Shown: piece after piece, positions 26,955 through 34,039 of the stretch
Layout: the number at the start of each line of letters is the position of its first letter
How positions within the stretch are numbered: the first letter of the stretch is position 1
From: Candidatus Hodarchaeota archaeon
Lineage (GTDB): Archaea > Asgardarchaeota > Heimdallarchaeia > Hodarchaeales > Hodarchaeaceae
Length of the DNA: 38,167 bases
Assembly (NCBI GenBank): GCA_016839815.1
Contig: JAEOTM010000037.1
Span: forward strand, 1-38,167
Reading direction: 5' to 3'
Notes under the pieces: generated by a model
What the model saw: the letters and a program-made list of their open reading frames with translations, nothing else
What the model was told of the DNA's origin: nothing
Database searches by the model: none
Program-made: the position numbers and the translations under genes

Positions 26955-28511
26955 GTGGTGGATAAAGTTAAAATAGTGAAGATTTTTCTCCAATATAATT
27001 ATAATGTTAGTGAGGAAACTTTAGAATTCATCCAAAAGAAGAATGTCTCAGAAAGAGAATTAAAAGAGTTTTTGATAACACAACCTCAGTTAGAACCAGT
27101 GATTTCAGTAAACCTTTTGAGAAGATATCTAGAAAACTTAAGAACCGAACCTAAACATATATCTCTGTCTGAAGATTCTGAAGAACAAATAAAAACTGAA
27201 ATTAAGACTTTACAGCAAAAAACACAGGAGCGAAAGTACACAAAATTAAGATTCTCAATAGACTTAGATATACCCTACAAGTTATCAGAGGAACCTAAAT
27301 TAACAGTTTTCCGGAATCTATTTCTGGATCGATATCAAACTCTCTCAAAGATTTTACTTCAAAATCTCGAACCAAATACAACAATTTTGACCCATAATCT
27401 TCCACAGGAGGAAGTTCCGATTAGTAGATCTGGAATGCTCGTTGGGATGATTCAAGATACTCAGGTTCTGCATACTAATCGCTTTGTAATACAACTGGAA
27501 GACTTTTTAACTGGCCGTACAACAAAATGTGTAATTGTGAAGGATACTCCGTCTTTTCCGCAATATAGGAGAATTTTGAGAGACTCAGTAATTGGTGTTG
27601 CGGGAGTATTGCCAAAAAATTTCCTCGAGGGAGAGCTAACAGCTTTTTGGGGACAAGATATTTTAAGACCCTCCTTCAAAAATCACAAATTCTCCACGTC
27701 AGAACCCTCAACTAAAGTATTATGTCTCTCTGATATACACTGTGGTTCATCACACTTTTCAAACCGATTATTCTCCCGACTAGTTGCATATCTGAATGAA
27801 GAGGTAAGTATTCCTGATATCCCATTTTCACCAGCGGAGATCTCCTCAATTATAATTGCTGGAGATTTAGTTGAGGGAACAGGTCTGGTAACAAAGGAGG
27901 AGAATGAACTAAAAATTGATTCTTATGAGGGGCAATATAACAAGCTCTCAGAATTATTGAGGAAAATCCCCGATCGAATTACAATATTTACTATTCCAGG
28001 AGAACATGATGCTACCCATTTAGCCATTCCCCAACCCGCAATAGATAAAAAAATGGGAAAATCCATTTATTCCTTTCCGAATATAAAAAACCATGGAAAT
28101 CCCCTTCGTATAACAATTAATGGAATGAGGTTCTTGATTTTCCATGCTCAAAGTTGTAATAATCTTTTTTATGGCCTAATGAAAATTAACCAGACTTCTC
28201 CAATTCAGGGCTTTAAAGAATTGATGGAATATCGTCATTTATCACCAGAATTTGGATCGTTTGCAGCATATGCACCATACTCAAGAGATTATCTAGTAAT
28301 AGATGAAGTTCCAGATATTTTGGTGACAGGCCATTTTCACCAAGCTAGAAAAGGTATCTACAGAGGCGTAAGTATAGCTACATGTGGAACTTTCAAAAAA
28401 ATGACCAAAACTGACAAGAAAACAGAGAGAGAAGTATCAGTTGGAGTTTTTCCAATCGTAGACACAAAAACAGCAGAAATAACGATGTTAGATTTAAATA
28501 AAATACCTTAA
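26955..28511 (+). CDS. polB: DNA polymerase D small subunit DP1 (phosphoesterase/3'-5' exonuclease fold)
   Basis: Motifs F.DRY, OB fold, SDIH, AGDLVEG, PGEHD, HLSP and DYLVIDEVPDILVTGHFH; adjacent to cdc6. Confidence 0.85.
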   Translation: MVDKVKIVKIFLQYNYNVSEETLEFIQKKNVSERELKEFLITQPQLEPVISVNLLRRYLENLRTEPKHISLSEDSEEQIKTEIKTLQQKTQERKYTKLRFSIDLDIPYKLSEEPKLTVFRNLFLDRYQTLSKILLQNLEPNTTILTHNLPQEEVPISRSGMLVGMIQDTQVLHTNRFVIQLEDFLTGRTTKCVIVKDTPSFPQYRRILRDSVIGVAGVLPKNFLEGELTAFWGQDILRPSFKNHKFSTSEPSTKVLCLSDIHCGSSHFSNRLFSRLVAYLNEEVSIPDIPFSPAEISSIIIAGDLVEGTGLVTKEENELKIDSYEGQYNKLSELLRKIPDRITIFTIPGEHDATHLAIPQPAIDKKMGKSIYSFPNIKNHGNPLRITINGMRFLIFHAQSCNNLFYGLMKINQTSPIQGFKELMEYRHLSPEFGSFAAYAPYSRDYLVIDEVPDILVTGHFHQARKGIYRGVSIATCGTFKKMTKTDKKTEREVSVGVFPIVDTKTAEITMLDLNKIP

Positions 28512-29749
28512 AGAAGTCTGAAATCAAATTGCTTATCTTTCTGTAATGTAGATTCAACTAAAGAACGAGGGATACTAAAATGAATTTCTTTTGTTCTTCC
28601 ATGACGTCCTCGAGAAACTACACGAGCAGTTATAATACCTAAAGCATCGAGTTCGTTAATTAGATCACCTACACGTCGTTGAGTAAGTGAATCCATACCT
28701 GACTCACGACATAGTTGAACATACTTTTCATAGACATCTCCTGTAGAGACAGCGTCAGGATCACTTGTAACGTTTTCAAGTTGATAAATGGAAGAAATGA
28801 CAATTTTGGATTGAATTGGAAGAGTACTAATCACTTCAGTGATTGTATTACGCTCAATGGCTCCTTGGGCTTTTTTAACATGAGATTGTGTTATGACTTC
28901 CGCGTGTTCTCGTTCAGCAATCTCTGCAGACACTCGGAGGAGATCCATAGCACGACGGGCATCACCATGTTCTTGGGCAGCTATCGCAGCTATCATATTA
29001 ATAACACCTTTATCTAGAGTGTTAGGGCGAAAAGCGATTTCTGATCTCTCTACAAGTATATCCGTGATTTCTGGAGCTTCATAAGGTTTGAAAACGAGTT
29101 CTTCTTCTGATAGGGAGGAAAGAACACGAGGATCTAAGTAATCTTTAAACTTCAAATCATTAGATATTCCAATAATGCTAACTTTCGCACTAGAAAGATC
29201 AGAATTAATTCGGGTGAGACTATAAAGCGTTTCATTCCCCGATTTTTTGATTAGGCTGTCGATTTCGTCTAATACGACGATAAACAACGATTCACGTTGA
29301 TCTAGTCCTTGCTTAAATCGGGTAAAGACTTCATCAGTAGCTAGACCAGTAAAGGGAACTTCGATACCCAAGGTACTACACAGATCTGCAAAGACTCGAT
29401 AGTTTGTATCCACATTATTACAGTTTAAATAAGCTACTTCAATGCGTAAGCCATGATCAGGAGCTTTTTCTTTCAACATACTTAAAACATACTTAGAAAC
29501 AGCGGTTTTCCCCGTACCTGTTTTACCGAAGCATAAGATATTACTAGGTTTCGCTCCTCGCAAAACAGAGGCTAAGATATAACCCAATTGTTTAATTTGC
29601 TCCGTTCGGTGTGGAAGATTCTTAGGTACAAAGGAACTATCTAAAACATCGCGCCTTTGAAATAGTTTAGGTGATTTCAGATACCCCTCAAAGATCTCAT
29701 CTAATGTTAAATCTGATTCGTCATTTTGTTTCATTGGTAATGCACCCAC
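28508..29749 (-). CDS. cdc6: Orc1/Cdc6 replication initiator
   Basis: LPHR, Walker A GKTGTGKT, Walker B VVLDEID, HGDAR, and a winged helix with RGRHGRTK. Confidence 0.97.
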   Translation of the reverse strand: MGALPMKQNDESDLTLDEIFEGYLKSPKLFQRRDVLDSSFVPKNLPHRTEQIKQLGYILASVLRGAKPSNILCFGKTGTGKTAVSKYVLSMLKEKAPDHGLRIEVAYLNCNNVDTNYRVFADLCSTLGIEVPFTGLATDEVFTRFKQGLDQRESLFIVVLDEIDSLIKKSGNETLYSLTRINSDLSSAKVSIIGISNDLKFKDYLDPRVLSSLSEEELVFKPYEAPEITDILVERSEIAFRPNTLDKGVINMIAAIAAQEHGDARRAMDLLRVSAEIAEREHAEVITQSHVKKAQGAIERNTITEVISTLPIQSKIVISSIYQLENVTSDPDAVSTGDVYEKYVQLCRESGMDSLTQRRVGDLINELDALGIITARVVSRGRHGRTKEIHFSIPRSLVESTLQKDKQFDFRLL

Positions 29750-33200: not shown

Positions 33201-33872
33201 TTAGAAAAATTCAGATAAAGTTTTCTTAGGTCTTTTCTTTTTTGCTGGTTTTATTGTTTCCGGCCCATTATCTCCTTTACTAGGTAAAGAATCAACAATC
33301 CAACTATTCATTTCACCTTCATAAGGTTTAAGCATTTCTGATAACTCTTCTTGAGTTTTTTCGTGATCAAGCCAATTAGCTACTTGTTTCTTATTGAGAA
33401 TTACTGGCATCCTATGAAAAATCTTCTCAACAACAGGATGAGGTTTTGTTGTCAAAACTGCACATTTATATTTCATTTTACTCTCCTCTTCACTGAAATA
33501 GGAATTATACACCCCAGCGATTCCGAATAGTGGCTCATTTTTTAAAGAGAAATAGTGTGGAATTCTTTCTTTTCCAGAATGTTCCCATTCAAAGAAGCCA
33601 TTTGCTAATATCACACAACGCTTTTCAATAAAGGCTTTCCTAAAAAGTTTTTTTTCATGAACAGTTTCACTTCTGGCTTTATATGATTGAAAGCCCTTTG
33701 TATAACCCCAATACATTCGTACTAGTTTGTAATCTTCTTCATTTACAATTCCAGTTGCTCTATTAGTTGGTTTTAAATTGTAATAAGGATAGATTTCAAT
33801 ATTCTCTGAAGAAACGCCAAAGAATGATCCGATCTCGTCTTTCGAGGAAAAAAAGGCAAATCTAGAAGGCAT
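33201..33872 (-). CDS. SRAP (SOS-response-associated peptidase; HMCES/YedK) family protein, non-canonical
   Basis: Family motifs YNLKPT, WG, ARSET, F..RC.I.ANGFFEW, AGVY and RMPVIL. The N-terminus is MPSRF rather than MCGRF. Confidence 0.9.
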   Translation of the reverse strand: MPSRFAFFSSKDEIGSFFGVSSENIEIYPYYNLKPTNRATGIVNEEDYKLVRMYWGYTKGFQSYKARSETVHEKKLFRKAFIEKRCVILANGFFEWEHSGKERIPHYFSLKNEPLFGIAGVYNSYFSEEESKMKYKCAVLTTKPHPVVEKIFHRMPVILNKKQVANWLDHEKTQEELSEMLKPYEGEMNSWIVDSLPSKGDNGPETIKPAKKKRPKKTLSEFF

Positions 33873-34039
33873 ACGATTAGATTTGGTACCAGTTTTAAAA
33901 AAATGTTCTACGAAACCTAAAATGGTAAAAAAATCTTAAAACTGAACATTTTTCAAAGGATAAAAGCAAATCCATCAAAGATCCTCATATTAGGACAACT
34001 AGATAGCGACTCTTGTCCTGAAAGAATGAAGGACAAATC

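Follow-up and report, generated by a model that had tools for sequence, protein, structure and literature searches.

The window, that is, the whole stretch of 38,167 nucleotides analyzed here (contig JAEOTM010000037.1 of a Candidatus Hodarchaeota archaeon), carries on its minus strand a gene for an SRAP-fold protein in which proline stands in the place of Cys2, the residue that the founding description of the family reported as absolutely conserved (PMC3765255). The SRAP field holds Cys2 to be invariant and takes the thiazolidine cross-link that it forms as the family's reason for being. We found the open reading frame, which runs from 33872 down to 33201, to be intact and to begin with the codons ATG CCT TCT AGA TTT (MPSRF), in agreement with what an earlier note on this DNA had read from the sequence. 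This ATG is the first start codon downstream of an in-frame stop, and an N-terminal extension is therefore impossible. The protein matches the Pfam profile SRAP (PF02586) over residues 1-194 with 159.4 bits, against a curated cut-off of 27.1, and SRAP was the only domain in the Pfam scan, which found no Fapy_DNA_glyco, H2TH, or zinc-finger domain. Its nearest solved relatives in sequence are BT_1218, HMCES, and YedK, and it is a member of the SRAP superfamily by descent. The protein stands alone at about 220 amino acids; longer or fused forms of such a Pro2 SRAP were looked for and none was found, a negative result that carries little weight. The gene has the following features, where the Pro2 clade denotes the group of archaeal relatives that share the proline, the Cys2 group denotes SRAP proteins with the cysteine, and PIP stands for PCNA-interacting protein:

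33201..33872, minus strand: coding sequence of the SRAP-fold protein, 223 amino acids plus stop (open reading frame list; Pfam SRAP 159 bits; model with a predicted local distance difference test score, pLDDT, of 90.8; Z 25-27)
33864..33872, minus strand: Met1-Pro2-Ser3 (ATG CCT TCT), with Pro2 at the place of the Cys2 nucleophile and Ser3 at the place of Gly3
33678..33680, minus strand: codon of Lys65, in the column of YedK Asn75 and HMCES Asn96 (alignments)
33588..33590, minus strand: codon of Glu95 in GFFEW, which corresponds to the catalytic Glu105 of YedK and is kept, being invariant in the Pro2 clade and the Cys2 group
33414..33419, minus strand: codons of Phe152-His153, with Phe at the catalytic His160 of YedK and His in the Asp161 column (alignment of iFHrmP with iHDrrP)
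33246..33287, minus strand: clade-specific motif LP(S/A)(K/R)GDNGPxTIKP, residues 196-209, which supplants the canonical VNxxxN...CI.P segment (alignments A1 and A2)
33204..33227, minus strand: PIP-like tail, residues 216-223 (...KTLSEFF), a proposed PCNA-binding peptide (conserved L219 and F222; complex model)

A profile alignment of the window protein to the solved proteins YedK and HMCES gave the following residue map:

Pro2, at YedK Cys2: replaced
Lys65, at YedK Asn75: replaced
Arg67, at YedK Arg77: kept
Glu95, at YedK Glu105 and HMCES Glu127: kept
Thr141, at YedK Thr149: kept
Phe152, at YedK His160 and HMCES His210: replaced
His153, at YedK Asp161: His for Asp, in a variable column
Arg154, at YedK Arg162: kept

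The motifs that the earlier note had quoted are all present (WG at residues 55-56, KAR within YKARSE at 64-69, FFEW within GFFEW at 92-96, and IFHRMP at 151-156). The residues that bind the backbone of single-stranded DNA (ssDNA), R67, T141, and R154, are invariant in the Pro2 clade, and the Asn that holds the backbone of residue 2 in cross-linking SRAPs is missing from the window protein, where Lys65 takes its place. Of the four active-site features that define the cross-linking class the window protein lacks three, and we therefore do not annotate it as a cross-linker of the YedK/HMCES type. Residue counts were taken from a 243-sequence alignment that holds 43 sequences of the Pro2 clade and 185 Cys2 sequences. 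They uphold one half of the histidine shift proposed in the earlier note, as Phe occupies the catalytic His column in 43 of 43 clade sequences, but not the other half, as the His in the next column is not specific to Pro2 proteins: it occurs in 22 of the 185 Cys2 proteins and in human HMCES (IHHRMP). What is special about IFHRMP is thus the Phe at the catalytic column and not the His one residue on. Elsewhere in the protein, six positions of the new C-terminal motif (L196, P197, D201, G203, P204, and T206) are invariant across the Pro2 clade, and about 8 residues that typical Cys2 SRAPs have are missing from the loop that follows WG (alignment A1).

The replacements are fixed throughout a clade of related proteins. 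In a search space of 5.8 billion proteins, 43 clusters were 44-90% identical to the window protein and all but two fragments among them start with MPSRF (41 full-length), while the next-best matches, at 38% identity or less, were bacterial MCGR proteins. The Pro2 clade numbers 44 sequences, which share 38-90% identity with the window protein and come from metagenomes and metagenome-assembled genomes (MAGs) of Heimdallarchaeia/Hodarchaeales, with source labels that read Hodarchaeales, Heimdallarchaeota (including LC_3), Kariarchaeaceae, and occasionally 'Thorarchaeota' or 'Promethearchaeota'. An exhaustive profile search over 1.84 billion representatives at 50% identity yielded 23,857 SRAP proteins, among which the clade collapses to P0036 and the divergent P0095, which is 38% identical to the window protein and has TTG immediately before PSRF. 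Pro2, Ser3, Lys65, and Phe152 occur together in 43 of 43 clade sequences and in none of the 185 Cys2 sequences, and His153 is found in 42 of the 43. At the replaced columns the Cys2 group has Asn in all 185 sequences, His in 184, and Gly3 in 167; Glu95 (43/43 in the clade), Arg67, Thr141, and Arg154 are common to both groups. Between clade loci the Pro2 codon changes among CCT, CCC, and CCG and the Ser3 codon among TCT, TCA, TCC, and TCG, with the residues fixed, and in the nine loci read an initiator codon always stands immediately before Pro (ATG, or TTG in one divergent member). The clade is monophyletic in a maximum-likelihood tree (Shimodaira-Hasegawa-like approximate likelihood ratio test 100), on a stem of 0.78 changes per site. 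As the clade arose only once, its four replacements count as one lineage signature and not as statistically independent covariation.

Together, these observations support a rewired and selected active site. The MP-start clade with a co-varying Asn-to-Lys change that the earlier note had asked for is real (Cys to Pro, Gly to Ser, Asn to Lys, and His to Phe, in 43/43), and its view of an enzyme that was rewired and did not decay agrees with replaced positions that are invariant and codons that vary synonymously; decay of the window copy was rejected on the same invariance. The note had held that its idea would fall if close relatives all carried MCGR, and the 41 full-length relatives, 44-90% identical, all carry MPSRF. 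An assembly error, a singleton mutation, or a wrong start can also be rejected: going from TGT to CCT takes two changes, no start codon lies upstream, and the 41 relatives show varied codons. We likewise rejected a viral or mobile origin, as a search of IMG/VR gave no member of the clade and a sole viral match, 30% identical.

Aligned structures place the proline at the site where the earlier note had asked to look for it. An AlphaFold2 model of the window protein, built on the alignment, has a mean pLDDT of 90.8 and superimposes on BT_1218, YedK, and HMCES with Z of 25-27.5 and a root-mean-square deviation (rmsd) of 2.1-2.4 Å over 203-209 aligned residues; all significant Foldseek matches were SRAP structures (E 1e-15 to 1e-19). 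Residue 2 of the model falls on chain residue 2 of the YedK cross-link (6NUA, 6KCQ), the YedK C2A Schiff-base complex (8D2M), HMCES, and BT_1218. As the aligned range begins at residue 2 in the model and the solved chains, the alignment puts Pro2 where Cys2 lies.

Outside the Asgard Pro2 clade we found two further SRAPs with proline for Cys2, P0072 (MPGRLSIY) and P0208 (MPGLFSQ), which retain Gly3, Asn, and His and lie on separate branches of the tree, so that the change from Cys to Pro has arisen more than once. Sporadic SRAPs that likewise lack Cys2, P0161 (MGHRF) and P0227 (MFKRF), also lie outside the clade. A union of the Pro2 clade with the Cys2 SRAPs of Heimdallarchaeia is absent from the free tree and is not rejected by the approximately unbiased test (p 0.39); it is possible that the Pro2 clade descended from a Heimdall SRAP that bore a PIP box.

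In every member of the Pro2 clade the C-terminus consists of a basic linker and, after it, (G/S/T)LxxF(F/L). Compared with the canonical PIP box Qxx[LIM]xx[FYW][FYW], the tail of the window protein (K-T-L-S-E-F-F) has the Leu and the Phe-Phe and lacks the Gln. We modelled SRAP residues 186-223 with the only PCNA of the source genome (G000 contig 206), both given as alignments, and obtained a score of 0.62 against 0.07 for the best control, with at least 70% of contacts agreeing between runs and a partner pLDDT of at least 46; 58 of 80 solved complexes score at least this high, as do 2 of 110 mismatched pairs. The modelled contacts join tail residues 214-223 to PCNA residues 46, 49-53, 131, 235-236, and 252-257, and Leu219 and Phe222 are placed most confidently. 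PIP-PCNA is a much-solved, textbook type of pair, and the model therefore shows likeness to a PIP peptide and not binding; on this model the tail may recruit the protein to PCNA in vivo. The PCNA gene itself (L052, 1486-2349) encodes an acidic C-terminal tail of about 30 residues, rich in Asp, Glu, and Tyr, that is conserved in Hodarchaeales relatives (alignment A3).

Related ends occur in Cys2 SRAPs (MCGRF) of the window's class, those of families f4, f5, and f7, which carry canonical C-terminal PIP boxes such as QSSLNDFF, QGSLDDFF, QKSITDWF, QNSLSNYF, and KQQKLF (L036-L045: G235, G169, G148, G247, G298, G181, G092, and others); in the Cys2 SRAPs of family f11, from the same phylum, the box is mostly absent. 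A bacterial origin of eukaryotic HMCES was reportedly proposed in 2013, and the presence of PIP boxes in both Heimdall Cys2 SRAPs and HMCES bears on the choice between a Heimdall-type and a bacterial origin. Human HMCES is recruited to replication forks through C-terminal PIP motifs (PMC9067407). Some bacterial-type SRAPs (P0072, P0047, P0107, and P0135) end in QLTLF, LTLF, RTLF, or QLHLFD; these ends resemble the beta-clamp-binding motif QLxLF, and clamp tethering may therefore be widespread in the family.

The source genome is about 90% complete and has a single SRAP gene; a second paralogue was sought in it and not found. The Pro2 type has a patchy distribution among GTDB species genomes: of the 22 that belong to the same genus as the window, 4 have it, and of 61 others in the class, 1 does. 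Cys2 SRAPs occur in other families of this class, and one 63%-complete MAG (G250) has both types. Within the genus, the congener G102 has on its contig 7 a second, MPSRL-type copy in three broken frames (L051, about 81265-81922), 82-88% identical to the window protein, and another congener has a 55-residue SRAP remnant with a stop codon (G265:C93:4775-4936). Within this one genus the gene has undergone gain, duplication, and loss. Its neighbors in the window are genes for small winged-helix proteins and unrelated genes. No shared neighbors were found in the distant loci examined or, by tblastn, in congeners, and a conserved operon or other clue from context was rejected, as flanking genes differ at every locus examined. 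DNA similarity to congeners is confined to the SRAP gene and about 53 nucleotides upstream of it, which adds one feature:

33873..33925, minus strand: short conserved stretch upstream of the SRAP gene, with a T/A-rich box about 25-33 nucleotides before the ATG (congener DNA similarity; listed upstream sequences)

Judging from its sequence, this stretch is likely the promoter of an mRNA with a short leader or none. At a distance of 3.5-6 kb from the SRAP gene there are genes for Orc1/Cdc6 and the small subunit of PolD. Specifically, at 26955-29749 of the window the PolD small subunit (plus strand; DP1-like, DNA_pol_E_B and Metallophos domains) and Orc1/Cdc6 (minus strand) stand tail to tail with their 3' ends overlapping by 4 nucleotides, and a replication origin may lie nearby.

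We propose that the window protein is an amine/iminium enzyme that acts through Pro2 on aldehydic lesions in ssDNA, with incision or a short-lived adduct as the outcome and no thiazolidine cross-link; we put the probability of this reading at roughly 0.5. The lesions recognized would be abasic (AP) sites, perhaps also ends with a 3'-phospho-unsaturated aldehyde (3'-PUA) or a 5'-deoxyribose phosphate (5'-dRP). Proline after the initiator Met allows Met removal, and methionine aminopeptidase would thus free the secondary amine of Pro2, a processing step that is also seen for Nei2 (PMC11323726). Pro2, at the place of the Cys2 alpha-amine, would then attack C1' of the ring-opened sugar to form an iminium, with Glu95 (Glu105 in YedK) as acid/base, and Lys65 and Phe152 would rebuild the pocket, where they may tune the pKa of the proline or touch the 3'-phosphate or O4' in the manner of the Nei lysine. 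With no thiol for ring closure, the adduct would go on to beta-elimination (strand incision, as by an AP/dRP lyase) or be hydrolyzed back; on chemical grounds a thiazolidine should be impossible without a 1,2-aminothiol, and hence for the Pro2 clade. The PIP-like tail would bring the SRAP protein to PCNA.

The closest precedent comes from engineered YedK. In the C2A and C2S mutants the N-terminal amine forms a Schiff base that can be trapped with borohydride, after which the strand of the AP-DNA is cleaved; C2A/H160Q keeps the rate of Schiff-base formation and about 40% of the lyase rate, whereas C2A/E105Q loses most of both (PMC9436759). His160 of YedK serves in ring opening only, the side chain of Asn75 hydrogen-bonds the backbone of residue 2 beside the lesion, and the cross-links of YedK and HMCES are reversible (PMC9436759). 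We favor the amine/iminium chemistry of Pro2 because the clade keeps what the engineered lyase needs, namely the residue-2 amine, the Glu, and the DNA channel, and drops the thiol and His160. In Nei/Fpg enzymes AP-lyase chemistry is carried out by the secondary amine of Pro, with Glu at O4' and Lys at the 3'-phosphate (PMC11323726), and the pocket set of the clade (Pro2, Glu95, and Lys65) appears to resemble this set in an unrelated fold.

Several points weigh against this proposal. The lyase step of YedK C2A is slow (0.05 per min, against 1.7 per min for Schiff-base formation; PMC9436759), which means that elimination is not what the SRAP pocket is built for. The Pro2 clade has moreover lost the ring-opening His. 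The source genome has three Fpg/Nei homologues (G000 contigs 67, 117, and 94; L053-L055), of which two start with MPEGPEVE and MPELPELE and the third, MSIELPEA, has no N-terminal Pro, so that it already encodes two Pro2/Glu3 enzymes of this kind. As for PCNA, the tail lacks the canonical Gln, and the pass of the PIP-PCNA model may mirror likeness to solved complexes, with a partner fold that is uncertain (pLDDT < 50). The gene is patchy and non-syntenic, from which it follows that its role is dispensable. Lastly, a PCNA-tethered cutter of template ssDNA would be hazardous at forks, which argues for another substrate or for an outcome without cleavage.

The usual nucleophile of AP and dRP lyases is the epsilon-amine of a lysine, which lends support to a rival that we nevertheless hold to be unlikely, in which Lys65 is the Schiff-base nucleophile, as in lyases of the Nth/OGG1 or Pol-beta type, and Pro2 only shapes or caps the N-terminal strand. 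As a nucleophile Lys65 would be as well placed as Pro2. It is present in 43 of 43 clade sequences and in 0 of 185 Cys2 sequences, and it replaces the Asn75 that is bonded to the backbone of residue 2 right by the lesion (PMC9436759). However, a merely structural residue 2 should admit other small residues that permit Met removal, and here it is Pro in 43/43 with the initiator always directly before it; the essential Lys of Nei binds phosphates and does not attack C1' (PMC11323726); and the independent MPG-start SRAPs keep the Asn, so Pro2 can arise without the Lys.

The hazard of cleavage at forks would be avoided if Pro2 formed a reversible, non-cleaving adduct that shields AP sites of ssDNA at PCNA-marked forks and releases itself, with no stable DNA-protein cross-link left behind; the adduct could be a carbinolamine or iminium, or a ring-closed N-(2-deoxyribosyl)proline after re-attack by O4'. 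The PCNA tether and the kept DNA-binding channel suit such an HMCES-like role, the Schiff base of YedK C2A outlives its formation about 30-fold before elimination, and the cross-links of YedK and HMCES are themselves reversible (PMC9436759); since His160 is what holds the O4' of the opened sugar, its loss would also leave O4' free to close the ring again. We nonetheless consider this outcome improbable, as an iminium formed by a secondary amine carries a permanent charge and should favor beta-elimination or fast hydrolysis, and as no SRAP is known to form an adduct of this kind; the argument is purely chemical.

That the protein is a pseudoenzyme, a reader of AP sites or ssDNA or an adaptor for PCNA that binds without covalent chemistry, would fit the replacement of three of four canonical active-site residues, the patchy distribution, the disrupted second copy in G102, and the remnant in G265. 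It seems to us quite unlikely, given that the replaced positions are invariant and do not drift, that Glu95 is kept in 43/43, and that Pro directly follows the start in every member. A different substrate, with the protein acting as an Fpg-like glycosylase on damaged bases of ssDNA or else reacting with another aldehyde (such as formyl-pyrimidines or protein/peptide adducts), is very unlikely: the Pro/Glu/Lys set does parallel the bifunctional Fpg/Nei glycosylases (PMC11323726), and the loop shortened by about 8 residues and the new C-terminal motif do reshape the surface, but SRAP structures have no known base-binding pocket, the residues that hold the backbone of the AP site are unchanged, and the gene context gives no support.

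Searches of open-access papers and bioRxiv for SRAPs of the Pro2 type, or from archaea or Asgard lineages, turned up nothing relevant and no account of a Pro2 SRAP. The present analysis adds the PIP-like tail with its PCNA model, the rival in which Lys is the nucleophile, the conservation among congeners of the gene alone, and the PIP-like feature held in common with Heimdall Cys2 SRAPs. A natural lineage that has Pro, Lys, and Phe in place of Cys, Asn, and His and retains the Glu, the DNA channel, and a clamp-binding-like tail suggests that the SRAP scaffold can support a second chemistry. Heimdallarchaeia and Hodarchaeales belong to the archaea usually placed nearest to eukaryotes. Since the Pro2 clade is found in them and the Cys2 SRAPs of the class have HMCES-like PIP boxes, the locus bears on the origin of a eukaryotic fork-protection factor, and also on what archaea do with abasic sites at forks. 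We further speculate, as a long shot, that the clade represents a new chemical class among handlers of abasic sites: a PCNA-tethered SRAP in which Pro2 forms a thiol-free, self-reversing covalent adduct (an iminium or a ring-closed N-deoxyribosyl-proline) with AP sites in ssDNA, derived from a PIP-bearing Cys2 SRAP of a kind that was perhaps ancestral to eukaryotic HMCES as well. If this were true, Asgard archaea of the Hodarchaeales type would have gained a way to protect forks that does not call for proteolysis to clear it afterwards.

Among known systems, the SRAP domain of YedK and HMCES (PF02586; PDB 6NUA, 6KCQ, and 6OEB) is the homologous one: the window protein shares its fold (Z about 25, rmsd about 2.2 Å), the equivalents of Glu105, Arg77, Thr149, and Arg162, and has at its C-terminus a motif that resembles the PIP motifs of HMCES, but differs in the replacement of Cys2 by Pro, Gly3 by Ser, Asn75 by Lys, and His160 by Phe, in the shorter loop after WG, and in the new LPxxGDNGP motif. 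The MPG-start SRAPs P0072 and P0208 also have Pro for Cys2, but these are single sequences that keep Gly3, Asn, and His. Fpg/Nei enzymes (MutM, endonuclease VIII, and Nei2) resemble the window protein in the N-terminal Pro after the initiator Met and in an active-site Glu and Lys, and some of them (Nei2) act on ssDNA (PMC11323726). Their fold, however, is unrelated, and the proline of the window protein adjoins Ser3 and not Glu; the window protein is no relative of Fpg/Nei, and any likeness is convergent. The best functional analogue is YedK C2A/C2S (PDB 8D2M), an SRAP pocket with an N-terminal amine and no thiol. Those mutants were made in the laboratory, their amine is primary, and they retain Asn75 and His160, whereas the Pro2 clade is natural, has a secondary amine, and shows compensating changes in the pocket. 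The Pro2 clade is thus the natural counterpart of the engineered C2A lyase.

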